Virus record (IMG/VR): IMGVR_UViG_3300028197_001024
Span: 1 to 64,000 of that record
Reading direction: 5' to 3' (one strand)
DNA: 64,000 nt
Origin: a virus
Part shown: positions 3,014-36,479 of the stretch, in pieces
How the letters are laid out: the number at the start of each line of letters is the position of its first letter
Numbering within the stretch: position 1 is the stretch's first letter
The notes under the pieces: model-generated
Database searches by the model: none
Told to the model about the DNA's origin: nothing
The model's input: the letters and a program-made list of their open reading frames with translations, nothing else
Position numbers and translations under genes: made by a program

Positions 3014-3586
3014 ATGGATAACACATTCTACAAACAAATCGGAGACTACAAAACATCAAAAGACCCAGTATTAGGTAACCTAAGATTGGTCGTTCACCTT
3101 GCAAAAAAATATCAAGGTATGGGACTATCATTAGAAGATCTAATCCACGAAGGTACAATTGGATTATGCCAAGCAAGAGACAAATGGAACCCTTCAAAAT
3201 CAAACGGTGCAAAATTCTCCACTCACGCATCATGGTGGATCAAGGCAACAATTCGCCAAGCACTAAACAACAAAAGCCGTACCATCCGCGTACCTGCTCA
3301 TAAGACTCATATCCCTGATGCTGCACCTAAAGTATCTGTATTAGATGCTACTTATCAAGGTTCTTATCAACCACACATAGAAAAATCACATGATGAATCA
3401 CATCTGAATCATACTATTGCCGGTTTACTTACTAAACTAAAACCTAAGCAACAAGAAATCATTAAAATGAAATTCGGTATTGGTTGCCATGAAATGAAAA
3501 CTTCTGAAATCGCAAAAGAACTCGGCTTAACTGTACAAGCAGTAAATGGAAATATCCGAAATGCTATTAAAACCATGAAAGGATAA
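3014..3586 (+). CDS. Phage-encoded sigma-70 family factor (regions 2 and 4)
   Basis: NLRLVVHLAKKY, DLIHEGTIGL, KFSTHASWWIKATI, and a region-4 HTH TSEIAKELGLTVQAV. Confidence 0.92.
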   Translation: MDNTFYKQIGDYKTSKDPVLGNLRLVVHLAKKYQGMGLSLEDLIHEGTIGLCQARDKWNPSKSNGAKFSTHASWWIKATIRQALNNKSRTIRVPAHKTHIPDAAPKVSVLDATYQGSYQPHIEKSHDESHLNHTIAGLLTKLKPKQQEIIKMKFGIGCHEMKTSEIAKELGLTVQAVNGNIRNAIKTMKG

Positions 3587-4099: not shown

Positions 4100-4936
4100 A
4101 TGCCAGAACTAGCAGAACTTAGATTAACCTCTGATTTTATTAATAAATCAGCAAACGGTTTAAAATTTGTAAACATTAAAAAGAACCCGATACATAAAGG
4201 TAAAGATATAGATGTACCTTTTAAGTTCTTTAGTATTTCATCGGAGAGTAGAGGAAAGGAACTTATGCTTACTATTTCAGACAATGATTCTAATGAAAAA
4301 ATGAATCTCTTAATGACTATGGGAATGAGCGGTCATTTTGCTCATACAAATACAGGTAATGAAAAAAAGCATTCTCATTTAATGTTTATTGAAAAAGACG
4401 GTACTACATTATCATTTGTAGATGTTCGAAGATTCGGTAAATGGAAATGGGTTGATGATTGGTCTCCTAATAGAGGACCAGATCCTACTAAAGAGTATGA
4501 TGCTTTTACTGATAATATTATACACAATTTACATAAAGCTGCATTTAACCATCCTATACATACTGTACTGATGAATCAATCATACTTTAATGGAATAGGA
4601 AACTATCTCAGGGCAGAAATACTTTATCGCTTATCTTGGATTAATCCGTTTGCATCAGCAAGAGAAATTTTAAAAAGAGAACCTGATCTTTTTGTATTAT
4701 GTAGAGACATTCCTTTACAAGCATATAAATTAGGTGGAGGGCAACTTAAAGATTGGGAAAATCCATTTAGCACAGATCCTGAGCCTCTTAGAAAATTTAT
4801 GAGGTGCTATGGAAATCCAGAGATGTCTAAGAGAAAGGATAAAAATGGAAGAATGTTTTGGTATGATTCTAAGTGGAATGATGACGCATTATGGGATCAT
4901 TATAGCGGACTCCCAAATCCTTCTGCTTACGCCTAA
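4100..4936 (+). CDS. Fpg/Nei DNA glycosylase, NEIL1-like (zincless finger)
   Basis: N-terminal MPE, RGKEL, MGMSG, FVDVRRFGKW, H2TH FNGIGNYLRAEILYR, no 4-Cys zinc finger, C-terminal RCYG...DKNGRMFW. Confidence 0.9.
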   Translation: MPELAELRLTSDFINKSANGLKFVNIKKNPIHKGKDIDVPFKFFSISSESRGKELMLTISDNDSNEKMNLLMTMGMSGHFAHTNTGNEKKHSHLMFIEKDGTTLSFVDVRRFGKWKWVDDWSPNRGPDPTKEYDAFTDNIIHNLHKAAFNHPIHTVLMNQSYFNGIGNYLRAEILYRLSWINPFASAREILKREPDLFVLCRDIPLQAYKLGGGQLKDWENPFSTDPEPLRKFMRCYGNPEMSKRKDKNGRMFWYDSKWNDDALWDHYSGLPNPSAYA

Positions 4937-4968
4937 ACTAATGCACACTAATGCTATATAAAAATAAA
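4934..4968 (+). promoter_or_regulatory. Putative middle promoter
   Basis: TAAAC-18 nt-TATAAAAATAAA. Confidence 0.7.
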
Positions 4969-4980
4969 TCAAATATTTAT

Positions 4981-5475
4981 ATGGCAAACGTTGATAACAA
5001 GTGTAAGGATCTCACTGTAAGAGATTACTTTTCGGAAAACGGTTATACTGATTCTAAAAATTCATTAGAAGATCTTTATTCATTACAAGCAAAAACACAA
5101 TCTATGTATTTTGAAAAACAAGGTAAGAAACCTTTTTCAGAATATAATATAGGTGATGTGATAGATTTTTTAATGGTCACTAATCATGCAATCATTGATG
5201 AGTTACATGAAATGGTAGATGCAGTTGGAGGAATTGAAGATGGTGAAGGGAATGCAGCATGGAAACCGTGGAAATCTAAGAATCCTGAAATAAGAAAACA
5301 AAAACTATCTGATTTAACCCCAGGTGATTTAAAAGAATTAAAAATGGAATGGATTGATGTAATGCATTTTGTATTTAATGCAGGGTTGGCAATCGGTGTT
5401 ACTCCTAACGAATTCTATAATCTTTACTTAAGTAAGAACGAGGAAAATTGGAATCGTCAAAAAAACAATTATTAA
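4981..5475 (+). CDS. Dimeric all-alpha dUTPase/dCTPase (T4 gp56-like)
   Basis: DELHE, WKPWK, EWIDVMHF, KNEENWNRQ..Y. The start was moved to 4981 because 4951 lies inside the promoter motif. Confidence 0.85.
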   Translation: MANVDNKCKDLTVRDYFSENGYTDSKNSLEDLYSLQAKTQSMYFEKQGKKPFSEYNIGDVIDFLMVTNHAIIDELHEMVDAVGGIEDGEGNAAWKPWKSKNPEIRKQKLSDLTPGDLKELKMEWIDVMHFVFNAGLAIGVTPNEFYNLYLSKNEENWNRQKNNY

Positions 5476-5497: not shown

Positions 5498-6904
5498 ATG
5501 CTTTTAGATATTACACAAGAAGATAAACAATTATTTGTTTCTTATTTTAATCTTGATGGAAAAACGAGATTTAAGACTTATGATCTTAAGACAGAAGATA
5601 TGTTTAATTGGGAAGTTTGTGATGATGCAGATCCAAAGGCAGATTCAAAAATAAAAAACTGGGATGGCCGATCTGTTAAAAAAGTAAGGTCACGATGGTT
5701 AAATAAGTATAGGATTATTGAATACATGGATCAGTTATCTTTTTCTGATAGAGAATTAATTTTTGGTTATCATTTTCCAAGAACTTATTTTGTAGATATT
5801 GAAGTTGAGGTAACTGACTCTTTTCCTGAGCCAAGTAAAGCACCTAACCCAGTTACTACAATCTGTATTGTTACTCCAGAAAAACAATGTATTGTTTTAG
5901 CAACAAAAGATCTAGATAATAAAACTCAAACTAAAATTCAAAATCAAATAGATGAACATTTTAAAAATATAGATGATGATTTTACTTTTACTTTTAAATG
6001 TTTTAAATCTGAGTATGATATGATGTCAACCTTTATGATGTCATTTGTACAAAAATTTCCAATGATGACAGGTTGGAATTATATTAAATTTGATTGGCAA
6101 TACATAATTAACCGATGTAAGAAATTAGGTGTTGATATTGGATCTGCATCACCTATAGGTAGAAATTTTGGTAGAGATGAATTTCCATGCCATGTAGGAG
6201 TAATGGATTATTTAGATATTTATGCAAAGTGGGATAGGACTGTTGATATTAAAGAAGATTTTAAATTAGATACGGTAGGAGAAGCAGTAGTAGGAATTAA
6301 GAAAGTTAAATATGAAGGTACTATTCAAGATATGTATGAAAAAGATTATCCTAAATATGTTTTCTATAATGTAATTGATACAGCATTAGTTTATCTTATT
6401 CATCAAAAGATTAAGACAATGGATATTGCATTAACTATTGCCCATATGACTCAAATTAGTATATTTAAAGCAGCCTCACCAGTAGCAATTACTGAAGCGC
6501 TATTGGCAAGAGAATTTTTAACTAGGAATTTAGTAATGGCAAAAGATCCTAAAGCTCCACCTGCGAAAAGAGAACAGTTTGAAGGCGCATTTGTAAAAGA
6601 ACCAATTACTGGTATGCATAATGCTGTTGCTGCATTTGATTTTGCTTCTCTATATCCTTCTATTATGAGGCAATTAAATGTATCACCTGAAAGTTTTAAG
6701 AAAAAGGTATCACCAGAAAAAAGAAATGATGAAAGAGGAGAGAATAATATTGTATCAGTTACAGGTGCTGTGTACGATACCGAGAGATCTATATTAAAAG
6801 ATGTTCTTACTAGGTTATATGATCAAAGAAAAGAATATAAGAAAGAATCTTTTAGACTACAGCAAAAAGCATATGATTTAGAACAAGAACAGAAAAGGTC
6901 TTAA
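5498..6904 (+). CDS. gp43A: Family B DNA polymerase, N-terminal subunit (3'-5' exonuclease, motif A, first finger helix)
   Basis: DIEV (ExoI), GWNYIKFD (ExoII), YNVID (ExoIII), FDFASLYPSI (motif A). The ORF ends shortly after RKEYKK. Confidence 0.93.
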   Translation: MLLDITQEDKQLFVSYFNLDGKTRFKTYDLKTEDMFNWEVCDDADPKADSKIKNWDGRSVKKVRSRWLNKYRIIEYMDQLSFSDRELIFGYHFPRTYFVDIEVEVTDSFPEPSKAPNPVTTICIVTPEKQCIVLATKDLDNKTQTKIQNQIDEHFKNIDDDFTFTFKCFKSEYDMMSTFMMSFVQKFPMMTGWNYIKFDWQYIINRCKKLGVDIGSASPIGRNFGRDEFPCHVGVMDYLDIYAKWDRTVDIKEDFKLDTVGEAVVGIKKVKYEGTIQDMYEKDYPKYVFYNVIDTALVYLIHQKIKTMDIALTIAHMTQISIFKAASPVAITEALLAREFLTRNLVMAKDPKAPPAKREQFEGAFVKEPITGMHNAVAAFDFASLYPSIMRQLNVSPESFKKKVSPEKRNDERGENNIVSVTGAVYDTERSILKDVLTRLYDQRKEYKKESFRLQQKAYDLEQEQKRS

Positions 6905-9776: not shown

Positions 9777-10523
9777 ATGAAAGATTATACTTATATACTC
9801 GGTCCTTGTAGTATTGAAAACGAGGATACTTTTTTAGAAGTGGCCAAAACATTAGATGGCTATATGGGAGATAAAGATTGGTACTTAAAAGGATCTTTTG
9901 ATAAGGCGAATAGAACTTCTATACATTCTGATAGAGGCCCTGGTTTAGAAGAAGGAATGGAGATTATGAGAACTGTTAAGCATCATTACCCTAACATTAG
10001 AATTGTAACAGATATTCATGAACCTAATCAAGCATTACCTTTATCCGAAGTAGTTGATGTTATCCAAATACCTGCATTCTTATGTCGCCAAACTGACCTT
10101 TTAGTAGAGTGTGCAAAAAACTTTAATGTCATTAATATCAAAAAAGGTCAATGGTTATCTGCTGAGGCAATGGAACATGCAGTTACAAAGATAAAAGAAG
10201 TAGATCCTAATTGTGAAGTATGGGTAACTGAAAGAGGATCTAATTTTGGTTATGACAGACTTATTGTAGATTTTAGAGGAGTGGATGTAATGAAAAAATT
10301 TGCAGATAAAGTTATTTTAGATTGTACTCATTCAACTCAAATGGCTGGAGAAGGTATAACTGGAGGAAGTCGTAAGTTAGCAAAGCAATACGCGTTAGCT
10401 GCAAAGATTTTTGAGTATGATGGTTCATTTATTGAAACCCACCCAGATCCAGATAATGCAATATCTGACTCTGGTAGTCAAGTAGAATTAGATTGGTTAG
10501 TGACTCAAATAAATAATATATGA
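9777..10523 (+). CDS. kdsA: KDO-8-phosphate synthase
   Basis: GPCSIE, SFDKANRTS, QIPAFLCRQTDL, KKGQ, ERG, DCTHS, ETHPDP. Confidence 0.92.
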   Translation: MKDYTYILGPCSIENEDTFLEVAKTLDGYMGDKDWYLKGSFDKANRTSIHSDRGPGLEEGMEIMRTVKHHYPNIRIVTDIHEPNQALPLSEVVDVIQIPAFLCRQTDLLVECAKNFNVINIKKGQWLSAEAMEHAVTKIKEVDPNCEVWVTERGSNFGYDRLIVDFRGVDVMKKFADKVILDCTHSTQMAGEGITGGSRKLAKQYALAAKIFEYDGSFIETHPDPDNAISDSGSQVELDWLVTQINNI

Positions 10524-11569
10524 ATCTAGACTATACTAAGTTACTTAATCGTAATCCTATTTCTACCGATCTTGATAAAATCCAAGAATACATAAAAGGA
10601 AAAAGAATACTTGTTACAGGTGGTGCTGGCTCAATAGGTAGTGAAATTGTACATCAACTTGTAAAATTTGGTGCTTCTACTGTTACTGTTTATGATAATG
10701 CCGAGGCTTCTGTTTTTCATTTAGAACAAGAGATAAGCAAATTATATCCTAAGTCTCATATTAAATATGTAATAGGTGATGTAAGAGATAAGTATAGATT
10801 AGAAGAAGTTTTTGATTCCTTTAAGCCTAGTATAGTTTTTCATGCAGCTGCTTATAAACATGTGCCAATGATGGAGGCTAATCCAGTTGAAGCAATAAAG
10901 ACTAATGTATTAGGTACTATGAATGTCTCAAATATCTCATATATGAATGAGGTAGAAAAATTTGTAATGGTATCAACTGATAAAGCAGTTAATCCAACAA
11001 ACATAATGGGTGCAACTAAAAGAATTGCAGAATTATATACTCAGTTTTTAGAAACAAAATCAGCAACTAAATTTATTGTTACAAGATTTGGTAATGTATT
11101 AGGATCTATAGGCTCTGTAATTCCAACATTTATAAAACAGATTGAAGGAGGAGGACCGGTTAGTGTTACTCATAGAGAAGTTATTAGATATTTTATGACT
11201 ATACCTGAAGCATGCCAATTAGTATTACAGGCAAGTGTACTAGGAGAAGGTGGTGAAATATTATTATTTGATATGGGAGAACCTGTAAGTATTACAGATT
11301 TAGCAAAAAATTTAATAAAACATTTTAATAGTGATGCTAAAATAGAATATGTAGGATTAAGACCAGGTGAAAAATTATATGAAGAACTGTTATGTGATGG
11401 TGAAAATATGGTACCTACCGATGATCATAATATTATGAAGTTAAACCACGAGGCTTATGATTTTAAAACTTTAATACCTAAAATAGAAAAGCTATCAAAA
11501 ATAAGATCAAATGATTTTTATAAAATACTCTTGTTAATGAAAAGTATTGTACCAGAATTTAAAAGATAA
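10520..11569 (+). CDS. UDP-GlcNAc 4,6-dehydratase (CapD/PglF-like catalytic domain)
   Basis: TGGAGSIGSE, HAAAYKHVP, STDKAV, MGATK, RFGNV, GLRPGEKLYEEL. Confidence 0.92.
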   Translation: MNLDYTKLLNRNPISTDLDKIQEYIKGKRILVTGGAGSIGSEIVHQLVKFGASTVTVYDNAEASVFHLEQEISKLYPKSHIKYVIGDVRDKYRLEEVFDSFKPSIVFHAAAYKHVPMMEANPVEAIKTNVLGTMNVSNISYMNEVEKFVMVSTDKAVNPTNIMGATKRIAELYTQFLETKSATKFIVTRFGNVLGSIGSVIPTFIKQIEGGGPVSVTHREVIRYFMTIPEACQLVLQASVLGEGGEILLFDMGEPVSITDLAKNLIKHFNSDAKIEYVGLRPGEKLYEELLCDGENMVPTDDHNIMKLNHEAYDFKTLIPKIEKLSKIRSNDFYKILLLMKSIVPEFKR

Positions 11570-11571
11570 AT

Positions 11572-12642
11572 ATGATAAAAGAATTATTAGTTAATACGTT
11601 ATCACCTGAAAATGGTACTTATTTTCATATAGAAAATTTAAATCAGTGGGCATCTAAAGTAGAACTTAATGGTAAATTAGAAACTATTGAAGTAAATGGT
11701 AAAATAGCTTCTTATGTTGCATACTATGTTAATGATGAGAGGTATTTTATTACAATGGTATGGACGGATCCTATCCATCGAGGAAAGGGTCTTTCAAAAA
11801 AGATAATTAAAAAATTAGTATCATCAACAGATCTTCCAATTGATTTAAGAGTTCATAAAGATAACCCTGCATATTGGTTATATAGGAATCTTAAATTTGA
11901 AGACGTTTCAGTCCATGGTGAAGAAATAGAATTAAGAAGAGTTAAAAAGATAGGAGTTATGCAACCTTATCTTTTTCCTTATGCCGGTTATTTTGGTTTA
12001 ATAAATTCATGCGATAAGATTTTGTTTTATGATGATGTTAATTTTATTATGAGAGGTTTTATTAATAGGCAAAAAATATTGGTAAATGGATCTTCTCATA
12101 CATTTAATATTTGTTTAAGTAAAGCAAGCCACAATAAATTTATTAACGAAATTGATCTTTTAAATGATAAAAGAAAAAATTTAAAGGTACTAAAGACAAT
12201 AGAATCTTCTTATAAAAAGGCTCCTTATTTTAATGATGTTTATCCTATAATTGAAAAGGTCATTAATAGCGATTATAAAAAGTTAGATGAATTGGTAATA
12301 TCTTCTATAGTAAGTGTATGTGATTATTTAGGAATGGATATAAATTGGGAAAGATCCTCGGTTGCAGAAGGTGATACTTGTGGAATGGAAAGAGGTAAGC
12401 GCCTTACTCAAATAGCAAAAAACCAAGGTTTTAATAATTACATAAATGTTGGCCCATCAGAACTTTACACAAAAGAACAATTTAAAAGAGATGGTATAAA
12501 TTTATTTTTTAATAAACATAATGTTAAAGAATATGATCAATTTGAAAAGCCATTTTTATCTCACTTATCATGTATAGATTTTCTCATGTTTAATTCAAAA
12601 AGAAAATGCAAAGAATTAATTTTAAGTTATAATGTAATATGA
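11572..12642 (+). CDS. GNAT-WbqC fusion protein
   Basis: N-terminal HRGKGLS acetyl-CoA motif, followed by WbqC signature MQPYLFPYAGYF...YDDV.F...INR...LS.ID.L. Confidence 0.8.
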   Translation: MIKELLVNTLSPENGTYFHIENLNQWASKVELNGKLETIEVNGKIASYVAYYVNDERYFITMVWTDPIHRGKGLSKKIIKKLVSSTDLPIDLRVHKDNPAYWLYRNLKFEDVSVHGEEIELRRVKKIGVMQPYLFPYAGYFGLINSCDKILFYDDVNFIMRGFINRQKILVNGSSHTFNICLSKASHNKFINEIDLLNDKRKNLKVLKTIESSYKKAPYFNDVYPIIEKVINSDYKKLDELVISSIVSVCDYLGMDINWERSSVAEGDTCGMERGKRLTQIAKNQGFNNYINVGPSELYTKEQFKRDGINLFFNKHNVKEYDQFEKPFLSHLSCIDFLMFNSKRKCKELILSYNVI

Positions 12643-13754
12643 AAAGAATTTACTTATCACCACCTCATATGTCAGGTAAAGAACTTGACTACATAAAAGA
12701 AGCCTTTGATCAAAATTGGATTGCACCGATAGGACCTCATCTTAATTTATTTGAAGAAAAGGTAAAAGAATATACTGGTGCTAAGCACGCAGTAGCTGTT
12801 ACTTCAGGTACTGCCGGTATTCATTTAGGATTAAATGTATTAGGAGTAGGAGAAGGTGACTATGTAATATGTTCTTCTTTAACATTTATAGGAACTGTAA
12901 ATCCAATATTATATTGTGGAGCTGAGCCTATTTTTATAGATTCGGAAGAAGGGTCATGGAATATGGATCCTCTTTTATTAGAAAAGGCAATACTTAATTC
13001 TTCTGCTATAGGTAAAAAACCTAAAGCTATTATACCTGTTCATATTTTTGGTATACCTTGTAATATGGACGCAATAAAAAAATTATCAAATGAATATGAC
13101 ATACCTATTCTTGAAGATGCAGCAGAAAGTCTGGGATCTAAATTTAATAATCAACATACTGGAACCTTTGGCACTATTGGGGTTTATTCTTTTAATGGAA
13201 ATAAATTATTATCTACCTCTGGTGGTGGAGTAATAATAACAGATAATAAAGAAAAGGCTAACAAGATGAGGTTCTTGTCTACACAGGCAAAAGATCCTAT
13301 GCCATATTATCATCACACTGAAATAGGATATAATTATAGAATGAGTAATGTACTTGCTGCTATTGGGGTTGGTCAAATGGAAGTAATAGAAGATAGAATC
13401 AAAAGGACTAGAGAAATGAATGAAACTTATAGAAAGGAATTAGGAAAATATTTTTATTCATTTCAAGAAGAGTTAGAAACAGATAGGTCTAACATGTGGT
13501 TAACATGTGCTATCTTAAATGCTGAAAATAAACCAGATGATTTAATTGCTCATTTAGAAAAAGATAACATTGAAGCAAGAAGAATTTGGAAGCCTATGCA
13601 TGAACAGCCAATTCTAACTAAGTATTTGAAATATATAAATGGAAATAGTTCTTTATTATTTTTACAAGGTATATGTTTACCATCTGGGTCTAATATGACT
13701 GATGTAGATTTAAAAAGAGTAATAAGGTCAATAAAAACATTTTTTAACAAATGA
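12639..13754 (+). CDS. DegT/DnrJ sugar aminotransferase (PglE-like)
   Basis: IYLSPPHM, SGTAGIHL, EDAAESLG, SFNGNK, GYNYRMSN. Confidence 0.93.
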   Translation: MKRIYLSPPHMSGKELDYIKEAFDQNWIAPIGPHLNLFEEKVKEYTGAKHAVAVTSGTAGIHLGLNVLGVGEGDYVICSSLTFIGTVNPILYCGAEPIFIDSEEGSWNMDPLLLEKAILNSSAIGKKPKAIIPVHIFGIPCNMDAIKKLSNEYDIPILEDAAESLGSKFNNQHTGTFGTIGVYSFNGNKLLSTSGGGVIITDNKEKANKMRFLSTQAKDPMPYYHHTEIGYNYRMSNVLAAIGVGQMEVIEDRIKRTREMNETYRKELGKYFYSFQEELETDRSNMWLTCAILNAENKPDDLIAHLEKDNIEARRIWKPMHEQPILTKYLKYINGNSSLLFLQGICLPSGSNMTDVDLKRVIRSIKTFFNK

Positions 13755-14647
13755 TAAATTTTGAAGATTTCAAATTATTAGAGTCTTATATAGGAGAAGA
13801 AAACTTTGAAATTTTACTAGAAAAAAATCTTACTAGTGAAATTAACAAAAAGATTAAATTTGGTGTTGTGATGGCAACTCATAAGATAGCAGATGGTAGC
13901 GCTCAGACAGGCAGACAGAAGTACATGGATACACCTGCTATATTAAAAGATTCTTTAGGTTCAATCAAAAACCAAAAGTATGATAATTATGTAGTTTATT
14001 TAATTGGGGATAAATATGACGGTGACGAAGAAATTAAGACTGTAATGGATAGCGTAATTCCTAAAGGTAAACTTAAATATCACAATCTATCTACACCCGG
14101 TGAAAGAAATAAAGGTTTTACTAAAAAACAATTTAGATATACTGCAGGCTGTGGTGCAGTAAATAAAGGTCTACAAATGGCAAAGAATGATGGTTGTGAT
14201 TATATTGTTAGACTTGATCATGATGATAAATGGACACCTAATCATTTAGAACTTTTAGCAAAAGCATACACACAGTACCCTGAATTAGCATATGTATTTA
14301 CTAGAAGCCGTAAAAAGGTAGATGCAACAAATAGTTCAAAAAAGTTTATGTACCAACCTAGAGATGAAAGACATACTAATTTAATAGAGCCTAATAATCT
14401 AGGATACACTCACGGTGATGTTAGTCATTCTGCAGTTTCATGGAGACCTTCTATGTGTGGAGATCTAAGGTATCGTGATGCTGATGCTCAATGTAATACC
14501 GAACCTAAAATATCTAAAGAAAAAACTAATCCTGCTGACGTTGATATGTTTAATAGAATGATGAAAGCTATAAAGGATAAAGGTCACAAATACATGTACA
14601 TACCAAAACTTACCAGTTTCTATAGAAACAGAAAAGGTAAATTCTAA
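13751..14647 (+). CDS. GT-A (GT2-like) glycosyltransferase
   Basis: AVNKGL...YIVRLDHDD.W.PNHLE. Confidence 0.8.
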   Translation: MINFEDFKLLESYIGEENFEILLEKNLTSEINKKIKFGVVMATHKIADGSAQTGRQKYMDTPAILKDSLGSIKNQKYDNYVVYLIGDKYDGDEEIKTVMDSVIPKGKLKYHNLSTPGERNKGFTKKQFRYTAGCGAVNKGLQMAKNDGCDYIVRLDHDDKWTPNHLELLAKAYTQYPELAYVFTRSRKKVDATNSSKKFMYQPRDERHTNLIEPNNLGYTHGDVSHSAVSWRPSMCGDLRYRDADAQCNTEPKISKEKTNPADVDMFNRMMKAIKDKGHKYMYIPKLTSFYRNRKGKF

Positions 14648-14981: not shown

Positions 14982-15533
14982 ATGGAAAGGTGCTTAATAT
15001 TAGATTTTGACGATACTTTAGTTTCAACTATAGATACTCATGCAAATTCTTGGAAACTTGCAATAGAAAGAGTTCTAAATAGAGATATTCCTATAGAAAC
15101 AATAATGTCAGATATTAATTATGGCATGGACGTTCTATTAAAGAAATATCAACTAACCGAAAAGGAATCTAAATTAGCACAAGATTATAAAAGAAAAATA
15201 TTTTCAAAGAATCTCCATAAAACCAAAATAAATCAATTACTTTTATGGGTAATTAAAAATTCTAAATTTGAAAAAGTTATTATAGCTTCTAATTCATCTA
15301 GAGAAAATGTAGATAGAATTATGGCTTACCATAATATAAGCCCTGATTTATTCGATCTTATTGTAACTAGAGATGATGTTAAAAATAAAAAGCCACACTC
15401 AGAAATGGCAGATTTAATTTTTTCAGTATTTCATGGTTATGAACCTAATGATTTTCTTATGGTTGGTGATTCAGAAGTAGATTCAACATTCGCACTTAAA
15501 AACAAAATGAAATGCATACTGGTAAAGTTTTAG
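14982..15533 (+). CDS. HAD-family phosphatase
   Basis: LDFDDTLV, IASNS, KKP, VGDSEVD. Confidence 0.9.
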   Translation: MERCLILDFDDTLVSTIDTHANSWKLAIERVLNRDIPIETIMSDINYGMDVLLKKYQLTEKESKLAQDYKRKIFSKNLHKTKINQLLLWVIKNSKFEKVIIASNSSRENVDRIMAYHNISPDLFDLIVTRDDVKNKKPHSEMADLIFSVFHGYEPNDFLMVGDSEVDSTFALKNKMKCILVKF

Positions 15534-16258
15534 TAGGAAATAGTGGAGATAGAGTATATCTTCAAGATGACAAAGTTATTAAAGAAGCAGGTGTTTATCC
15601 TATAAAGTTTAAACAACAAATGGATTGGTTAGCAAACTGTACCCATCCTAATTTTATAAAAATTAAACCTATTTCAGATACTTCATTTGAAATGAAAAAG
15701 TACCCTACATGGTATGACAAGATTTGTGAACAGCCTTTAATTAAATCAATTGATCAATTGGATGATCTTATTCATATTGCTAATGATTTTGATGGATATG
15801 GTGCTGATGTAGATACAAGATCATATTTAGATAAATTAGAAGGTAGAACCGGGTATAAGTATGAAGGTAATTTAGATGCGGCATCTTCATGGGGTTTTGT
15901 ACACGGAGACTTAACAGTAAGCAATATTCTTTATGATAAAGATTTTATATTTATAGATCCAAGAGGCACAGAAGAACAGAATTATTATGATTATGGAAAA
16001 CTGATGCAATCATTTGTAATGAAATATGAGGCCCATATATACAATGAAAGGAATTCTAAATATCTTAAGTTCTGTAGAGAAGCTGAAAATATAATGTATG
16101 AATGGTATGACGAATATCAATTAAAATTCTTTTTAGCAGTTCACCTATTAGGGGCCGTGCCTTTCTTTGAGCTAAATGAAAGATATGAATTGGCTGGTAT
16201 GTTCCTTAAAAAAGGTCATGAATTATTTGATGAATTAGAAATAAAATATAGTAAATGA
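15512..16258 (+). CDS. APH/choline-kinase-like small-molecule kinase
   Basis: GNSG, HGDLTVSNIL, FIDPRG, YDYGKL. Confidence 0.85.
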   Translation: MHTGKVLVGNSGDRVYLQDDKVIKEAGVYPIKFKQQMDWLANCTHPNFIKIKPISDTSFEMKKYPTWYDKICEQPLIKSIDQLDDLIHIANDFDGYGADVDTRSYLDKLEGRTGYKYEGNLDAASSWGFVHGDLTVSNILYDKDFIFIDPRGTEEQNYYDYGKLMQSFVMKYEAHIYNERNSKYLKFCREAENIMYEWYDEYQLKFFLAVHLLGAVPFFELNERYELAGMFLKKGHELFDELEIKYSK

Positions 16259-16959
16259 AAAGAGTAAGTAAAGCAATTATATTAGCAGCAGGTCGTTCAA
16301 CAAGATATGGCAAAAACAAATTAGTAGATCCTATCTTAGGTAAATCAACTGTTGAATATTGTATTGAATTTTGTATTGAGAATGGAATAGAAGATTGCTA
16401 TATTACAATCAGTAAAGCAGATTTCTTTTTTAAAGATAACGTAAAACTTTCTCATCCTATTATTGAAAAACTAAACAAATACAAAAAGGATATTAATATC
16501 TTTTATGAATTTCAAAAGGATGATGAATATGGACCAGGCGCCGCTATAAAGGTTTGGTCTGGTAAATTTAATGAAGCTTTCTTATGTTTATTTGGAGATA
16601 ATTACTACCAAGGAAATATAGGATTAGAATATCATGATCCAAACAGTACAGTTGTTACTTATAAAGATTATGAAACAAGAGCTAGGAATTTACAATTAGC
16701 ATCTATATTAGAAAATGTTGTTATTGAAAAACCGCATGGAATTGTTTCAGGAAGGTACTTCTGTGGTTATATGATATTTTCAAAAGAAGCATTTAATAAT
16801 CTTGACAGTATTAAAATGTCAAATAGAAATGAATATGAAATTACCCATTTGATTAACTCAATGGATAATTTAAAATTTGAAGAATTAGATATATGTTGGT
16901 ATGACTTAACATATGAAAATGATAAAGAAGTAATAGAAGAATTAATAAAAACATGTTAA
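16255..16959 (+). CDS. Sugar-1-phosphate nucleotidyltransferase (RmlA-like)
   Basis: AIILAAGRSTRY..K, FGDN, IEKP, SNRNEYEIT. Confidence 0.9.
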   Translation: MKRVSKAIILAAGRSTRYGKNKLVDPILGKSTVEYCIEFCIENGIEDCYITISKADFFFKDNVKLSHPIIEKLNKYKKDINIFYEFQKDDEYGPGAAIKVWSGKFNEAFLCLFGDNYYQGNIGLEYHDPNSTVVTYKDYETRARNLQLASILENVVIEKPHGIVSGRYFCGYMIFSKEAFNNLDSIKMSNRNEYEITHLINSMDNLKFEELDICWYDLTYENDKEVIEELIKTC

Positions 16960-18222
16960 ATGGAAAATGTTAAAAAAATAGGTTTCTTTAAACTAGGTAA
17001 AGCGATTAAGTTTAATGAAAACAGTTGGAGTGCAATCGGTGGTGATTGTGAACCTAAACAATTAATCTGTTCAATTGCAAAAAGAAACCCTAATATTGAA
17101 TATTGGTTATTAAGCCCAAATGATTTAGGTAAGTTTAGAGCTAAACAAAAACCTAAAGTAAATTCTTTATTTGGCCCTCCTCCTACAGATGAACCCGTAG
17201 TTCCTAATAATATTAAGGAATTTCATTCAACTATGAAGGAGAGAAAATCTACTGATGAAACTGTTGAAATTATTCAAGGTTTAGATTTAGATTTTATTTT
17301 CTTTTATACTGGTCCAACAAGTACCGTTAATATTCCAGAGTATATTAATAAGAAAGATGGTACTGGTCAAGTTAAGTCATTAGACTTCTTTAAGTATTAT
17401 GCTGCTCCTATTATTAAATCAATGAATGAGTTGGAAAAGAAAGTTCCTATTGTTGGTTTACTTGTTGATAACCGTTATATTCTTGCATGTAAAGACTGGG
17501 GAATTAATAATAGACCAACTTATTACTTAGCACAAAATACATTTACTAAAGAAGAACAATATTTCTGTAACCCACCACTAAGAGATGTTAAAACTATTAC
17601 ATCTACTTATGAATATTCAGGCATTGAAACGGTATTCTTATTAGATAAGAAAAGATATGATACTGATGAATTATTTAAAATGAAAAAGACTGATTCATTT
17701 ATGATGTTACAGAATCAAGGTAAAGGTTCAGGTGGAATGGATCGTTGGGATCCAGTAAAAGAATATATTGTTGATCAAGAAATAGAGACTGATATTTACG
17801 GAAAATGGGATGATGAGATTAAGGAAATGTATCCTAAATGGTTTAAAGGAGAAACGAGAATTGAAACAATGACCGATGAATTACTTGGTACTAAATATAC
17901 ATTCTGTGTACCTATTAAAGAAGGTATGGTAACCTCTAAGTATGCCGAAATGCTACACTATGGTATTATACCATTCTTACACCCGTCTTACGACACCGAC
18001 TTTAATGTCTTTCCAGAAGGTCATTTTATTAGATGTAAATCAGCAGAGGATTTAAAAAAGAAAATTGAATTCTTAAATGCAAACCCAGAGCATTATAAGA
18101 AATTATTTTATAACCTACAAGAAAAGTATCTTAAGGATTCTTATTATACCGGAGAACATGTAGACAACAAGATCTGGGAATCTTATGAACGAGTAACTAA
18201 AACTGAAACTATAAATGTATAA
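16960..18222 (+). CDS. GT-B glycosyltransferase resembling T4 DNA beta-glucosyltransferase
   Basis: KIGFFKLG..., LLVDNRY, and C-terminal VTSKYAEML..IPFL..YDT...SAEDLKKKIEFL parallel T4 BGT as recalled from memory. Confidence 0.65.
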   Translation: MENVKKIGFFKLGKAIKFNENSWSAIGGDCEPKQLICSIAKRNPNIEYWLLSPNDLGKFRAKQKPKVNSLFGPPPTDEPVVPNNIKEFHSTMKERKSTDETVEIIQGLDLDFIFFYTGPTSTVNIPEYINKKDGTGQVKSLDFFKYYAAPIIKSMNELEKKVPIVGLLVDNRYILACKDWGINNRPTYYLAQNTFTKEEQYFCNPPLRDVKTITSTYEYSGIETVFLLDKKRYDTDELFKMKKTDSFMMLQNQGKGSGGMDRWDPVKEYIVDQEIETDIYGKWDDEIKEMYPKWFKGETRIETMTDELLGTKYTFCVPIKEGMVTSKYAEMLHYGIIPFLHPSYDTDFNVFPEGHFIRCKSAEDLKKKIEFLNANPEHYKKLFYNLQEKYLKDSYYTGEHVDNKIWESYERVTKTETINV

Positions 18223-19237
18223 TTCCGAAACAAAAATCCTAGTCACTGGTGGTGCTGGGTTCGTTGGTACAAATTTTATTAACGATTTATTAAATAGAGG
18301 TCATAATCCAAAATGCATTGCGGTTATTGATAACATGGAGCACGGTACTTATATTGCAAAGGTACATGACCAAATTGAAAATTTTCATAAAGTAGATATT
18401 AGAAATCAATATGTAGAAAACATTATCCAAGAGTTTTCACCCGATTATGTTTACCACTTTGCTGGTTTAGTTTCTATTTATGACTGCCATGAAGATCCGT
18501 ATGAAGCCGTAGATAATAATATCTTAGGAAGTATTAATGTAATGAATGGTTGTGTAAAGGCAGATGTAAAAAGAATTATCTTTAGTGAAACTTCTGCAGT
18601 ATATGAAAATTGTGAAATGCCTAAAGAAGGATTTAACGAAAAGCAATCTGATCCTACTACAATTTATTCTACTACTAAAGCATGCCTTGCTCTATTGGCA
18701 GAATCATATCAGAGAACTAAAGGTTTAAATTATACTGCATTAAGATACTTTAATGTTGCAGGGCCTCTACAAGATTATAATAGAACCATCCCACCTGTAT
18801 TTGCTGGGTTTATTTTAAGAATTAAAGGTAATCATAATCCTATAGTGTTTGGTGATTATATGAAAGCAAGAGATTATATTGATGTATCTGATGTTAATGC
18901 ATTTCATATTCTTTGTATGGAAAATGAAAACACTGCAAACCAAACATTTAATTTAGGTACTGGTAAAATGACAAACTTAATGGATCTTAAAAATATGATT
19001 GGTGAGATTATGGGAGTTGGTGAACCTACATTTGATCACTATGATCCTATTGCAGGTGAAGCTCTAAATATTAGAGGAGATATTTCTAAAGCTAAGTCAA
19101 TGGGATGGGAACCTAAAAAAGATATCAGAGATACGATAAAAGAAACGATAGTTTATCTTGAAGAAGAAATTAACCAAGGGACTATTGATCCACTAACATT
19201 TATGGAAAATTTAGAAATCGAAAAAGTAAAAATTTAA
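18215..19237 (+). CDS. NAD-dependent NDP-sugar epimerase/dehydratase
   Basis: TGGAGFVG, YSTTK (YxxxK), LRYFNV.G, RDYIDV.D. Confidence 0.92.
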   Translation: MYNSETKILVTGGAGFVGTNFINDLLNRGHNPKCIAVIDNMEHGTYIAKVHDQIENFHKVDIRNQYVENIIQEFSPDYVYHFAGLVSIYDCHEDPYEAVDNNILGSINVMNGCVKADVKRIIFSETSAVYENCEMPKEGFNEKQSDPTTIYSTTKACLALLAESYQRTKGLNYTALRYFNVAGPLQDYNRTIPPVFAGFILRIKGNHNPIVFGDYMKARDYIDVSDVNAFHILCMENENTANQTFNLGTGKMTNLMDLKNMIGEIMGVGEPTFDHYDPIAGEALNIRGDISKAKSMGWEPKKDIRDTIKETIVYLEEEINQGTIDPLTFMENLEIEKVKI

Positions 19238-19238
19238 T

Positions 19239-20501
19239 ATGGAAAAAGAATTAAAATGGGGTACTATGATTCCGTTAATCGGTGGGAGTGCAATAGGTTG
19301 TAAAAAATCTGCAGGTAATGAGCCAGCATTTCATTTAAGCTATGAAGCAATGGCTGCTAATGAAAGTCATATCGAAAAATATTGGCCAGAAGTACCTATG
19401 TACAGATTAGATCATGAAGATTTAGATATACCTGAGAAAACATTTCAAGAAGTAGATTATGTAAATTCTGTTTGCCCGTGTGCAGGTTTGTCACAGTTAA
19501 ATTCTGCGAAAGGTAGTGCATCATCTAGAGGATCCGATGCGGTTCAAAATCAATGGATGTATAATTCAGCAGAGTATGTTTTGGAGAATGTTAAACCTAA
19601 AGTACTTTGGGGAGAAAATGCACCAGGGCTTTTTACTAAAATGGGAGAAGGTGTTGTTGACAATCTTAAAGCCATCGGTGAGAAATATGGATATAGCTTT
19701 TCATTAATTAAAACTAACACTGAGTTGCATGGAATTCCACAAAGAAGAATAAGAACATTTTATTTCTTTTGGAATACACCAACAGTTCCTATGTTAAGTT
19801 GGAAGTTTAGAGAAAAGAAAAATCTTATTGATTATCTTAATGAAATACCAGAAGATGCTACACAACAGGATATGTTTATGGTTGAAGGCAAAGTCAGTGA
19901 TCATTTTAAACCTTACGAATATGTTTTAGAAAAAGAAGGTTTAACGCATTCTGAATTTGCTGCCAAATTTAAAAAGGGTACTATCGCTCAATATCTAGAA
20001 AAGAATGAATTAATACCTGATTGTATTAAATGGTTAGAAAAACATTATCCTAAAAGAGGGTTTTCAAATAAAAAATCTACAAAGACTTTTATTGATATGC
20101 TAGAACACCAAGAATACAAAACGAGCCAAGGTTTAGGTTACTGGGATGCATCACCGCATTTCTTCCATGATTCTTTTTCTGCCCTTATAGGTAGAAACAT
20201 GTTTAATGGTGTTCATCCTATAGAAAACAGATATCTTAATGTAAGAGAAATGCTTCACTTAATGGGGCTACCTTTAGATTTTGGTATTGAAAGTTCAAGG
20301 CAAGTAAATCATATTGCACAAAATGTACCAGTTACTACTGCAATGGATATGGCAGATGAAGTAAAGAAATTTTGTAATGGAGAAGCTAAGATGACAAATT
20401 ACACCTTCTTAAAACAAGATAATACTAGTCACAAAATAATTGACTCTACTGAAATTGGAGCAGAACCAAAAAAGAAGTATAAAGTAAAAAGTATAATTTA
20501 A
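19239..20501 (+). CDS. C5-cytosine DNA methyltransferase homologue with atypical SAM-binding motifs
   Basis: Motifs IV CPCAGLS, VI GENAPGL, VIII GIPQRRIR and IX RYLNVRE..LMGLP are present. Motif I reads IPLIGG and motif X reads IAQNVP. Confidence 0.85.
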   Translation: MEKELKWGTMIPLIGGSAIGCKKSAGNEPAFHLSYEAMAANESHIEKYWPEVPMYRLDHEDLDIPEKTFQEVDYVNSVCPCAGLSQLNSAKGSASSRGSDAVQNQWMYNSAEYVLENVKPKVLWGENAPGLFTKMGEGVVDNLKAIGEKYGYSFSLIKTNTELHGIPQRRIRTFYFFWNTPTVPMLSWKFREKKNLIDYLNEIPEDATQQDMFMVEGKVSDHFKPYEYVLEKEGLTHSEFAAKFKKGTIAQYLEKNELIPDCIKWLEKHYPKRGFSNKKSTKTFIDMLEHQEYKTSQGLGYWDASPHFFHDSFSALIGRNMFNGVHPIENRYLNVREMLHLMGLPLDFGIESSRQVNHIAQNVPVTTAMDMADEVKKFCNGEAKMTNYTFLKQDNTSHKIIDSTEIGAEPKKKYKVKSII

Positions 20502-20508
20502 ATTAATT

Positions 20509-21525
20509 ATGAAAGATAAAGGATTAGCCATAGGTATATCAAGCCTAGAGTTTACTAATATCTTATGTAGTTATTATCCTAAAGGGATCAAAGAAAAATT
20601 TGATATCTATTTATTTGTGGATGATACTAAAATAGATTTAGAAAAGCTTCAGTGTATTTTTGAAGAGCATGATTTAGATATTTTTAAAAATGCAAAGATT
20701 ATAATTTTAAATGACCTTTATAACCATTACATAGAAAAACATGGTTACGAAGGAAGATCAAAAGAATTTCTATTAAGTCATGGCTGCCTCTTTAAAATAT
20801 TAATGCCTATATACTTAAAGGAAAAATTTGGAGTAAAAAGAACATTAGTATCAGATGATGATGTATTTATTTTAAACGATCTTAGTTATATGTGGGATGA
20901 ATATGAAGAGTTTGGCATAAAAAAGGAAAACTTATTTTACATTAGAAATAAAGATAAGTATGAAGTCATGGATTGTTTTAACGGTATTTTTGAATCTAAT
21001 TTTAGCTTAGATGAAATGAATGCCCTTTCCATAAATGCAGGCAATATAATATATGGAGAAGATCCTAAATTAGAATATTACTTTGAGAGATTTATGAAAC
21101 ACCCATTTATACATCATCAGTATTTTAATTTTACTGGGTATACAAGTTGGACTGTAGAACAAAGATTCCATCACTTTAATGTTCATAGGTATTTAGCAGA
21201 AGGAAGAAAGGTTAAATTTACTGAAAGTAAAGACTTAAGATTAATGCAGAATAGAGACAAGATGATGAAAGCAGGTACACCACCAGACAAATATCTTAAA
21301 GTAGTTGTACCTTCTATAATTCATTATGCAATAGGTGTAAAGAAGCCTCTATGGTTAAATGATTTTTTACCAGGATTAGAATGGAGATACGGTTTTAAGT
21401 ATGAAGCAAAATACGAACTTAAAAATATCTTATACGATAAAAATTGGTCACCGCCTTCGTTTAAAAGTATACAAAAGAATGGATTTATATTAAAAAAGGA
21501 ATTAAAAACAAAATCAATATTTTAA
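20509..21525 (+). CDS. Putative GT-A (GT8-like) glycosyltransferase
   Basis: VSDDDVF (DxD), INAG, EQ, IIHYA..K. Confidence 0.6.
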   Translation: MKDKGLAIGISSLEFTNILCSYYPKGIKEKFDIYLFVDDTKIDLEKLQCIFEEHDLDIFKNAKIIILNDLYNHYIEKHGYEGRSKEFLLSHGCLFKILMPIYLKEKFGVKRTLVSDDDVFILNDLSYMWDEYEEFGIKKENLFYIRNKDKYEVMDCFNGIFESNFSLDEMNALSINAGNIIYGEDPKLEYYFERFMKHPFIHHQYFNFTGYTSWTVEQRFHHFNVHRYLAEGRKVKFTESKDLRLMQNRDKMMKAGTPPDKYLKVVVPSIIHYAIGVKKPLWLNDFLPGLEWRYGFKYEAKYELKNILYDKNWSPPSFKSIQKNGFILKKELKTKSIF

Positions 21526-21551: not shown

Positions 21552-22349
21552 ATGAAAGATAGAAAAAGTATACCTGTTATTGGAGTTCCTGTAGTAAATG
21601 GAGTTCATTGGGTAAAAAGATTAATGCTATCAGTTGATTACCCTGTAGATAATTTATTTATAATTAATAATAATGGAAGAGGAGAAATTAATGAAGAATT
21701 AGATAAGTTAAAAAATATATCTAATAAATTTATTAAGAATATACACATTACACATTTACCTAGTAATTTAGGAGTCCCGGCAGCTTGGAATTTAATTATT
21801 AAATCATTTTTAATGGAGCCTTATTGGATAATTTCTAACCATGATGTTGCCTTTTCACCTGGTTTATTAGAAGAATTTTCAAATATGGCTCAGGATAAAC
21901 AAATAAGTATGATTCATCCTAGAGCAGGTGTATTTGGTGTAGGTACATATGATTTATTTGCTATAACTGAAATAGGGGTAAAAACGATAGGATTATTTGA
22001 TGAAAATTTATATCCTGCTTATGGAGAAGATACTGATTATATAATGAGAGTTCTAAATTTAAATCCAAAGGTTTGTAGAGGATTGACTTATACTTATTTA
22101 CATGGAAAAGAAATAGCCGATTGTGTCAATTATGAAAATAATGGTCGACAAACGTCTAAAGAAGAACCTCAAATGCAAGAAAAATTAAATAATGTTAATT
22201 ATAAAAATTACAAATATTTAGATGAAAAATGGGGAGAGCATTGGAGAGGTTTAACTCCTTATAAATTTCCTTTTAATAATAAAGAATATTCTAATTCTTA
22301 CACTTCATGGGATATAGATTATATAAGAGAAAAATATTTAGACTTTTAA
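21552..22349 (+). CDS. GT2-like glycosyltransferase
   Basis: IINNN, NLGVPAAWN, NHDV, IGLFDEN.YPAYGEDTDY. Confidence 0.85.
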   Translation: MKDRKSIPVIGVPVVNGVHWVKRLMLSVDYPVDNLFIINNNGRGEINEELDKLKNISNKFIKNIHITHLPSNLGVPAAWNLIIKSFLMEPYWIISNHDVAFSPGLLEEFSNMAQDKQISMIHPRAGVFGVGTYDLFAITEIGVKTIGLFDENLYPAYGEDTDYIMRVLNLNPKVCRGLTYTYLHGKEIADCVNYENNGRQTSKEEPQMQEKLNNVNYKNYKYLDEKWGEHWRGLTPYKFPFNNKEYSNSYTSWDIDYIREKYLDF

Positions 22350-23272: not shown

Positions 23273-24391
23273 ATGACAGAGGAATTACAAAAAATCAACG
23301 AAGAAGCATCAAAATTCTATAATTACGAACAGGCTGTTAAATTAATGCTTAACTCTATTTACGGTGCATTTGGTAATCCTTATTTTTATTTCTTTAATGT
23401 TGATATTGCAGAAACTATTACACTCCAAGGTAAAGATGCAATTCTATATACTGAACAATTAGTTAATAAGTATTTTAAGGAATTCTGGCATAAGGATTTA
23501 CCAGCTCATGCTGCTATGGGTATTACTGTAACTGGTAAAATTGAAAAACCTGTAGGTATTTATATTGATACAGATTCAGTGTATGTTAAATTTGATGAAG
23601 TAATTCAAAAATCAGAAGGCTGGGTTGGTGATGAAAAAGAATTTATACTTAAGCTTTATAAGGTTAGGTTAAATGGTTACATAGAAAAGATTCTACAAAA
23701 ATATGCAGATGATAATAATGCAGAAAACTTTTTATCTTTTGAATTAGAAAGTATTGCTAAAAATGCAATATGGTTGGCAAAGAAAAAGTATATGCAGAAT
23801 ATAGTTTGGAAGGATCCTGATATTCATTACGATGATCTCTCTAAGATTAGTTCAAAAGGATTTGAAATCATTCAGTCATCTACCCCTATTTTTGCAAGAG
23901 AAAAACTAAAAGAACTATTAACTTATATCTTTTCTGTTAGTGAATTAGATATGGGAGCCTTTGCTTCTTTACTTAAAGATGTTAAAAGGCAATTTAGATT
24001 AGCCAATGTTGATCAAATTAGTTTTTCAAGAAAAGTAAATAATTATCAAAAGTATATTGTAAATGATTATGAGCAATTTGAAATTGCATCAAAATGTCCA
24101 ATTGGTGTAAGATCTGCAGGCTATCATAATTACTTACTAAATAATTCAGGCAAGAAAGGTAAATATCAACCACTAGGAAATGGTGAAAAATGTAAAATGT
24201 ATTTTTCTGAAGATAAGTCATGTGATGTGTTTGCTTATGCACCAGGTGATTTTCCTTATGAGTTCGCGCCTAAAATAGATTATGATAGGCAATTTGAAAA
24301 AACAATATTGGATCCTATAAACAGAGTTGTTACTGCTATGGGTTTTAAAGGATTTAACAGAAATCTTATTTACACAACCAGCCTATTTTAA
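23273..24391 (+). CDS. gp43B: Family B DNA polymerase, C-terminal subunit (motifs B and C, thumb)
   Basis: KLMLNSIYGAFG, YIDTDS, AKKKY, KGFEIIQSSTP. Confidence 0.93.
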   Translation: MTEELQKINEEASKFYNYEQAVKLMLNSIYGAFGNPYFYFFNVDIAETITLQGKDAILYTEQLVNKYFKEFWHKDLPAHAAMGITVTGKIEKPVGIYIDTDSVYVKFDEVIQKSEGWVGDEKEFILKLYKVRLNGYIEKILQKYADDNNAENFLSFELESIAKNAIWLAKKKYMQNIVWKDPDIHYDDLSKISSKGFEIIQSSTPIFAREKLKELLTYIFSVSELDMGAFASLLKDVKRQFRLANVDQISFSRKVNNYQKYIVNDYEQFEIASKCPIGVRSAGYHNYLLNNSGKKGKYQPLGNGEKCKMYFSEDKSCDVFAYAPGDFPYEFAPKIDYDRQFEKTILDPINRVVTAMGFKGFNRNLIYTTSLF

Positions 24392-36113: not shown

Positions 36114-36479
36114 ATGGCAAGAAAAAGAAATTACTTAAATAATAGGGATCTTCTTGAAGAAATAGTTAAATCTAAAGAATTAGATGAATTAACCCCAAAG
36201 GCATTGGAATTTCTAATGTTATTGGCAGACAAATGTTCTAGAAAATTATCATATGCAAATCCTGATGATAGACAAGACTGTATAGCATCTGCTTATATGG
36301 ACTTATTTAAATATTGGAGAAACTTTAACCCTGAAAAATCTACTAATGCATTTGCTTATTTTACTGAAATATGTAAAAGGGGGTTTGCAAAAGGTTGGAA
36401 TAAATTACATCCTAGGAAATATGCTGGTACTGTATCAATTAATGGTAGTGCTGACAGTGATGGGATTTATACAATATAA
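36114..36479 (+). CDS. gp55: Late-transcription sigma factor (gp55-like)
   Basis: NYLNNRDLL, NFNPEKSTNAFAYFTEI. Confidence 0.8.
   Translation: MARKRNYLNNRDLLEEIVKSKELDELTPKALEFLMLLADKCSRKLSYANPDDRQDCIASAYMDLFKYWRNFNPEKSTNAFAYFTEICKRGFAKGWNKLHPRKYAGTVSINGSADSDGIYTI

Follow-up and report, generated by a model that had tools for sequence, protein, structure and literature searches.

DNA cytosine-C5 methyltransferases rank among the best understood DNA enzymes, and we know of only one natural change of donor among them, that of CmoX, which works with carboxy-S-adenosylmethionine (Cx-SAM). CmoX (PDB 8YF3) is a phage cytosine C5-carboxymethyltransferase defined by an SPPC motif and by an arginine at the position of N304 in M.HhaI; this residue, Arg350, occupies the place of the motif-X Asn and touches the transferred group (PMC12783734). 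In other phages, genes for a C5 methyltransferase, a TET-type dioxygenase (5mYOX) and glycosyltransferases lie together in clusters (Burke et al. 2021, PMC8256090; Pyle et al. 2023 preprint). Here we analyse a relative of these methyltransferases encoded at 19239..20501 (+) in a stretch of 64,000 nucleotides, hereafter the window, from the virus record IMGVR_UViG_3300028197_001024. Its 420-residue product belongs to a family of at least 324 clusters (50% identity) in which the catalytic core is untouched and the motifs that contact S-adenosylmethionine (SAM) are rewritten in one fixed way. Because the family is tied to gene sets in which cytosine is exchanged ahead of replication, its textbook substrate should be absent. 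The best explanation of the sequence and model comparisons is that the gene encodes a predicted, catalytically competent DNA cytosine-C5 transferase, and that this enzyme belongs to a separate clade of the C5-methyltransferase superfamily found almost only in viruses. New here are the residue-level map of the cofactor pocket, non-redundant co-occurrence counts for the surrounding genes, the exclusion of Cx-SAM, backed by a positive control that matched, and the relatives that are fused or of eukaryote type.

The window is part of an uncultured, marine T4-like myovirus with a G+C content of roughly 30%, and its gene set includes a gp20 portal, a prohead protease, UvsX/RecA, a DnaB-type helicase and a split family-B polymerase. 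The complete IMG/VR record is a 74,467-base contig with a completeness estimate of 27%. A first-pass annotation, made by a model from the sequence, had read the open reading frame (ORF) at 19239..20501 as a C5-methyltransferase fold with intact catalytic motifs and a rewired cofactor pocket, had proposed an unusual donor for hydroxymethyl, carboxymethyl or similar transfer, and had suggested a structural comparison with M.HhaI and an alignment of homologues carrying IPLIGG. We compared the predicted fold with M.HhaI, aligned the homologues and confirmed that the ORF is real.

Catalytic core and cofactor pocket

The protein matches PF00145 with 70.3 bits against a cut-off of 22 and aligns only from profile position 47, which leaves the N-terminal SAM-binding part unaligned. 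An AlphaFold2 model made from 142 homologues (mean predicted local distance difference test, pLDDT, 95.7) has the two-domain fold, catalytic and target-recognition, of C5 methyltransferases. Structure comparison over about 275–300 residues gave VIA Z values of 25.8 for M.HaeIII, 25.7 for DNMT1, 24.6 for M.HhaI and 24.2 for CmoX, and Foldseek E values to C5-methyltransferase structures ranged from 1e-13 to 5e-15. The M.HaeIII superposition spanned 274 residues at a root-mean-square deviation of 3.0, and that on M.HhaI placed model residues 3–382 on HhaI 10–325.

The catalytic motifs are intact, as the first-pass annotation had read them. Motif IV is C79-P80-C81 (VCPC), motif VI E126-N127-A128, motif VIII P167-Q168-R169-R170-I171-R172 and motif IX R331...R336-E337...G343-x-P345-x-x-F348, and phmmer pairs C81 with C81, E126 with E119 and R170/R172 with R163/R165 of HhaI. 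In a family alignment of 142 sequences (32–90% identity), to which all counts in this section refer, P12, L13, G15, C81, E126, A128, T159, R170, R172, M342, Q361 and N362 are invariant (142/142). Conservation of the target-recognition region is low (mean 0.35), too low for any inference on a common DNA target.

It is at the cofactor site that the family departs from the canonical enzymes. With the register anchored on the GG pair, the motif I position reads I11-P12-L13-I14-G15-G16, and the family form is [IV]-P-L-x-G-G instead of FxGxGG, with only the final GG retained. The motif X position is A360-Q361-N362-V363-P364; profile alignment to M.HaeIII sets AQNVP opposite GNAVP, which refines the register of the AQNV noted earlier. 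The canonical motif-X Asn (HhaI N304) is thereby replaced by the invariant Gln361, and the following Ala/Ser by the invariant Asn362. The acid of motif II, previously described as unclear, can now be placed more closely: Glu36 of the window protein sits one residue ahead of the canonical ribose-binding Glu position, an acidic residue occurs at family position 36 in 42/142 sequences and at position 37 in 16/142, and a conserved ribose-binding acid is not apparent in the family. Conserved instead, one helix turn further on, are N41 (136/142) and D/E42 (137/142).

An hhalign comparison with the CmoX orthologue of S-CRM01 put the ribose-binding Glu opposite family position 37 and the adenine-stacking Phe opposite position 38. 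The latter, which also lies opposite F48 of CmoX and W41 of HhaI, is Phe in 126/142 sequences and Met in the window protein. Position 58, which follows strand 3, is Asp in 93/142 sequences. Ahead of W106, which aligns with HhaI L100, the family has six inserted residues, D100-A-x-Q103-N104-x, and a conserved polar set (N41, D/E42, D100, Q103, N104, Q361 and N362) lines the site. The adenine-contact positions (F38, D58, G15-G16) thus look largely kept; what looks rebuilt is the part of the site for the ribose and the methionine. Judged by the alignment, neither the intact catalytic motifs nor the unusual IPLIGG and AQNV are chance deviations: key residues in each are invariant across the 142 sequences, so the motifs are real and selected for, and the remodelled pocket is fixed across the whole family.

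An almost exclusively viral family with eukaryote-type relatives

A word-indexed search returned 2,301 relatives at E < 1e-5, and an exhaustive search returned 324 clusters (50% identity) below 1e-30; ESM Atlas neighbours were 94–100% viral. Among 185,579 species genomes there were only 14 matches, all on contigs of metagenome-assembled genomes bearing the same phage module, and neither a restriction-modification context nor a restriction-enzyme partner was seen for the family in that search. Cultured carriers are Pseudoalteromonas phage vB_Psh_XG4 (33% identity), S-TIM5-like cyanophages (30%) and Bacillus phage G (gp301, 25%). Literature searches gave nothing relevant on the methylase family in phages with 5-hydroxymethylcytosine (5hmC), or on DNA modification in S-TIM5.

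The closest relatives outside phages, a set of eukaryote-type sequences 51–60% identical to the window protein, consist of long proteins with C2H2 or CXXC zinc fingers (P0040, P0084, P0036, P0075 and P0121) and include at least 10 transcripts of the copepod Neocalanus flemingeri. These proteins retain IPLIGG, NE-x-H and CQNVP, that is, the same pocket residues. A quick maximum-likelihood tree with a CmoX-like sequence as root groups the 12 eukaryote-type proteins in one clade (SH-aLRT support 99), which is sister to the window subgroup and lies with it inside a 20-row clade (98). The nesting of these proteins among marine phage sequences suggests capture of the viral clade, whether the recipient was a eukaryote, a eukaryotic virus or a transposon.

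Two fused forms extend this picture. P0219 (838 residues, 47 cluster members) joins a C2H2 finger, a divergent clade member (YPNAGG, APC, CQGVP) and a C-terminal TET2-like dioxygenase domain (PDB TET2, E 6.8e-12); its ORF stops shortly past the HxD motif, and the gene may continue in another exon. P0327, one metagenomic protein of 889 residues, links a clade member with a 5-hmdU-DNA-kinase-like domain (PF18723), the two parts standing in the order usual for the adjacent genes; it may be a true fusion or a read-through of neighbouring genes. The substrate of TET enzymes is 5-methylcytosine (5mC). The occurrence of the same pocket in CXXC-bearing eukaryote-type proteins, together with the TET-fused member, argues for a universal cofactor and a cytosine substrate; these comparisons favour SAM as the most likely cofactor, and SAM with 5mC as product would be the simplest reading. 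The CXXC and zinc-finger relatives and the more distant TET member likewise suggest uptake of a viral clade by marine eukaryotes.

The methylase relative is a fixed part of a portable DNA-modification module

In the window, the methylase relative starts 1 nt after the stop of a gene for a nucleoside diphosphate (NDP)-sugar epimerase, in a same-strand run ordered HAD phosphatase, kinase-like, nucleotidyltransferase, GT-B glycosyltransferase, epimerase, methylase relative, GT8-like and GT2 glycosyltransferases. The members of this run, with one further gene upstream, are as follows.

4951..5475 (+): all-alpha NTP pyrophosphatase (dUTPase_2 / MazG-like), candidate dCTPase of the 5hmC pathway (PF08761, E 0.0014, below cut-off; phrog_173 NTP pyrophosphohydrolase, E 8e-19)
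14982..15533 (+): HAD-family phosphatase or phosphomutase (PF13419, E 1.9e-21)
15512..16258 (+): kinase-like (APH-type, weak match), probable sugar kinase (PF01636, E 0.0078, below cut-off; phrog_21938)
16255..16959 (+): sugar-1-phosphate nucleotidyltransferase (PF12804 and PF00483)
16960..18222 (+): GT-B glycosyltransferase, structure nearest T4 DNA beta-glucosyltransferase (weak Pfam match to Glyco_trans_1_2; AlphaFold2 and Foldseek)
18215..19237 (+): NAD-dependent NDP-sugar epimerase (PF01370, E 1.8e-46; phrog_540, E 1.9e-61)
19239..20501 (+): C5-cytosine-methyltransferase-fold enzyme with altered cofactor pocket (PF00145, E 2.5e-19; pLDDT and VIA Z as above)
20509..21525 (+): GT8-like glycosyltransferase, a lead only (nearest named ESM Atlas clusters Glyco_transf_8, score 0.96; Pfam and PHROG searches gave no match)
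21552..22349 (+): GT2 glycosyltransferase (PF00535, E 1.1e-5; phrog_29879 galactosyl transferase, E 5.5e-27)

To place this arrangement in the family, we clustered the ORFs of 80 IMG/VR loci and the window and collapsed methylase relatives of >90% identity, which left 35 groups. A user of the hydroxymethyl handle lay within 10 kb of the methylase relative in 27 of the 35 groups and within three genes in 23; such users were PF11440 / phrog_2888 DNA alpha-glucosyltransferases (E 7e-33 and 1.5e-61), PF18723 5-hmdU-DNA-kinase-like proteins or GT-B/GT4 enzymes, and on the contigs of metagenome-assembled genomes they were found similarly near. Epimerases stood within three genes in 18/35 groups. A divergent thymidylate-synthase homologue lay within 10 kb in 18/35, often adjoining a dCMP deaminase. 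Distant loci carry a fused nucleotidyltransferase-kinase form, and the neighbours in Bacillus phage G are of the same kind (alpha-glucosyltransferase, glucose-1-phosphate thymidylyltransferase and HAD). The module occurs both in T4-like phages and in phages with a Pol III alpha replicase and is therefore portable. The methylase relative is a fixed part of this module, whose other components are an Asp-type thymidylate-synthase homologue, dNMP kinases, often a dCMP deaminase, a hydroxymethyl-handle user of the DNA alpha- or beta-glucosyltransferase-like or the 5-hydroxymethyl-DNA-kinase-like type, and an NDP-sugar supply with epimerase.

The candidate handle user of the window itself is best described by its predicted structure. 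The GT-B enzyme at 16960-18222 (AlphaFold2 pLDDT 70) has T4 beta-glucosyltransferase (BGT) as all of its top five Foldseek PDB matches, the best at E 2.5e-8 and with a small margin over other GT-B folds; its sequence gave no PDB, Pfam AGT or PHROG match, and BLASTP found no similarity to the alpha-glucosyltransferase of phage G.

The predicted source of the hydroxymethyl group lies beyond the window. At contig positions 70728-71636, a thymidylate-synthase homologue has T4 dCMP hydroxymethylase (gp42) as its best PDB match (E 9e-23) and is also near the CMP hydroxymethylase MilA, with ThyA reached only at E 4e-11; it carries Asp at the ThyA N177 position. Guanylate-kinase-like and thymidylate-kinase-like genes stand upstream of it and an ATP-grasp enzyme downstream. 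All divergent thymidylate-synthase homologues near family members carry this Asp, whereas Asn stands there in the true ThyA copies of those genomes, and the Asp-type homologue is present in 5/5 complete or near-complete genomes, 13/19 long contigs and 10/10 contigs of at least 80 kb. Asp at the N177 position is a mark of cytosine specificity (preprint), and Asp-type homologues can yield 5hm-dCMP or 5m-dCMP (preprint); for this reason we only infer a hydroxymethyl product for the contig enzyme, from its similarity to gp42 and from the glucosyltransferases nearby.

Several further features of the contig are of separate interest. The ATP-grasp ligase (492 residues, contig 71654-73132), directly downstream of the dCMP-hydroxymethylase homologue and outside the window, could modify the DNA further by attaching an amino acid or a group of that kind. 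Upstream of the methylase run, at 9777-14647, is a second sugar pathway with a KDO-8-P/DAHP-synthase-like protein, a PseB-like 4,6-dehydratase (PF02719, E 9e-113), a WbqC plus GNAT protein, a DegT aminotransferase and a GT2 enzyme; this composition points to an amino sugar with an N-acyl group, or to a sugar of the nonulosonic type, as product. The family-B DNA polymerase is encoded in two genes, an N-terminal one (5498-6904, exonuclease and polymerase start) and a C-terminal one (23273-24391), about 16 kb apart, between which lie the ribonucleotide reductase, sugar-pathway and DNA-modification genes. An Fpg/Nei-type DNA glycosylase at 4100-4936 (PF01149, with H2TH and Neil1 DNA-binding domains) is unusual for a phage with probably modified cytosines. 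The contig also has two clear sigma-70/ECF-type genes and one weak sigma-like ORF (window 3014-3586 and 36114-36479, contig 73744-74382), and a TnsA-like endonuclease domain protein among the structural genes (36487-36963; PF08722, E 1.3e-15) may be a homing-type nuclease.

Candidate chemistries and known systems

By analogy with M.HhaI, the enzyme would flip a cytosine out of the DNA and activate C5 through addition of Cys81 to C6, with Glu126 protonating N3 and Arg170/Arg172 holding the base. The donor would be an adenosyl cofactor, with SAM the most probable candidate. Its binding would differ from the canonical mode: D/E42 may take the part of the missing ribose-binding Glu, and Gln361/Asn362 would give the methionine end a new shape. 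The enzyme's role would be to methylate cytosines that escaped replacement by hydroxymethylcytosine, or C-containing DNA such as that of the host. We tentatively prefer this SAM-dependent methylation of escaping cytosines or of C-containing DNA, at somewhat less than an even chance, and several observations weigh against it. The canonical enzymes touch SAM with a ribose-binding acid, with the Gly that opens the glycines of motif I and with the Asn of motif X, and all three appear lost here. Equipped with a gp42-like enzyme, dNMP kinases and an NTP pyrophosphatase, the phage should have C5 of its cytosines occupied already, which would leave little substrate for an ordinary methylase. P0327 hints at work on the hydroxymethyl handle, though it may be a read-through, and we found no measured activity for any family member in the literature. 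The strongest point is that one clade with a rewritten pocket, and not just any C5 methyltransferase, tracks the module through unrelated phages, namely T4-like and Pol III-type lineages, Bacillus phage G and cyanophage S-TIM5.

Of the first-pass annotation, the intact catalytic motifs and the remodelled pocket, fixed across the family, hold up; no unusual donor of the kind that it proposed was found. SAM-independent or otherwise non-SAM chemistry at C5 could take two forms: transfer of a hydroxymethyl-type group from a one-carbon donor, for example methylene-tetrahydrofolate, to cytosines left in the DNA, or addition of Cys81 at C6 to activate 5hmC (or a phosphorylated form of it), with expulsion of the leaving group and coupling of a nucleophile. 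Invariant changes fall exactly at the SAM-contacting motifs, a new conserved polar set lines the site, the gene sits beside hydroxymethyl-handle users of whichever type, and P0327 would couple the clade to a 5-hmdU-DNA-kinase-like domain; moreover, work of the Klimasauskas laboratory reportedly showed that, in vitro and without SAM, canonical C5 methyltransferases attach aldehydes at C5 and swap the hydroxyl group of 5hmC for another. Yet no donor-making enzyme is specifically tied to the gene, the adenine-contact positions are kept, the eukaryote-type relatives share the pocket outside any 5hmC context, and the phage would already make the hydroxymethyl group before replication. A hydroxymethyl writer acting on DNA, one of the transfers first suggested, is not needed for the surrounding glycosyltransferases, because the contig encodes a gp42-like dCMP hydroxymethylase homologue with dNMP kinases. 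On balance we regard non-SAM chemistry at C5 as doubtful, and as unlikely the more specific proposal that a virus-specific clade no longer moves a methyl group from SAM and uses Cys–C6 catalysis for hydroxymethylation of cytosine or for substitution at 5hmC.

Less probable still are three readings in which the donor, the partner or the substrate is of another kind. That the protein is no DNA C5 writer, and instead either binds DNA with base flipping, as a decoy or reader, or forms m5C in RNA in the manner of DNMT2, would fit the expected lack of DNA substrate in a 5hmC phage and has a precedent in DNMT2, the same fold acting on tRNA; we consider it improbable, given that the invariant Cys, Glu and Arg speak for catalysis, that the CXXC, zinc-finger and TET fusions point to DNA, and that the best structural matches are DNA enzymes, with Dnmt2 lower at Z 20.4. 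The enzyme might also supply the methyl group in a route that makes 5hmC after replication through a methylase and a TET dioxygenase, the latter encoded at another place, in keeping with the known phage clusters of C5 methyltransferase, TET, glycosyltransferase and epimerase genes, the TET2-like domain of P0219 and a contig only about 27% complete. Yet PF12851 (TET) had no match in the contig, phage G or S-TIM5, a weak search in which the control genomes also went unmatched; tblastn with the TET part of the eukaryote-type P0219 found nothing in 1.65 Mb of family loci; and every complete genome tested has an Asp-type thymidylate-synthase homologue instead, which makes this route a slim prospect. 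Carboxymethyl transfer, named in the first-pass annotation, fares worst, and a Cx-SAM-dependent enzyme like CmoX is highly improbable here: superfamily and phage setting are shared, and CmoX is a structural neighbour (Z 24.2), but the family has [CP]-P-C-A-G and an invariant Gln where SPPC and Arg define CmoX, and the eukaryote-type relatives keep the same pocket. CmoA (TIGR00740) was not found in the contig or in four complete genomes (S-TIM5, phage G, XG4 and a complete 293-kb IMG/VR genome), whereas the positive control, S-CRM01, matched. With no SPPC motif, no Arg and no CmoA, the CmoX/Cx-SAM route was rejected.

The control genome merits a remark of its own. The gene annotated in S-CRM01 as a DNA-cytosine methyltransferase (115080-116908) is a close CmoX orthologue (8YF3, E 1.7e-158) with both SPPC and Arg, and it adjoins a CmoA-like gene (E 2.5e-35); because of this adjacency, S-CRM01 probably carries 5-carboxymethylcytosine derivatives. 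A literature search on carbamoylmethylcytosine found nothing.

What the family offers depends on its product. If 5mC is still made, the enzyme would provide a back-up layer of protection in 5hmC phages and exhibit a new mode of SAM binding; if it is not, the family would hold new DNA chemistry of use for epigenome tagging. Were the non-SAM or 5hmC-directed reading true, it would add a new enzymatic step to phage DNA hypermodification.

Among described enzymes, M.HhaI and M.HaeIII (PF00145) share with the family the two-domain fold, the catalytic residues and motif IX. They differ from it in having FxGxGG, a conserved ribose-binding Glu and GN(A/S)VP where the family has [IV]PLxGG, a Glu that is not conserved and AQNVP; in addition, the Gln of the canonical PCQ is Ala in the family, a six-residue polar insert precedes the equivalent of HhaI L100, and the family showed no restriction-enzyme partner in the species genomes searched. 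CmoX resembles the window protein as a structural neighbour and a phage enzyme of the C5-methyltransferase fold whose donor preference is set at the motif-X position, but it keeps canonical motifs I and II (FAGGGG, NEF) and has the key Arg and a CmoA partner, none of which is found in the window family. In the phage clusters of C5 methyltransferase and TET genes, as here, a methylase-fold gene adjoins a glycosyltransferase and an epimerase, or a kinase, that decorate 5hmC in DNA. Those clusters make the handle after replication, by methylase and TET, whereas here an Asp-type thymidylate-synthase homologue would supply a modified nucleotide before replication and no TET was found by a PF12851 search without matching controls. 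The T-even pathway (gp42, gp1, gp56 and alpha- and beta-glucosyltransferases) is paralleled in the contig by the gp42-like homologue, the dNMP kinases, the NTP pyrophosphatase and the BGT-like glycosyltransferase, and relatives of the window locus carry a PF11440 alpha-glucosyltransferase. The T4 pathway to 5hmC, however, has no enzyme of the C5-methyltransferase fold, and to it the window phage adds its own NDP-sugar supply and the extra GT8-like and GT2 glycosyltransferases.

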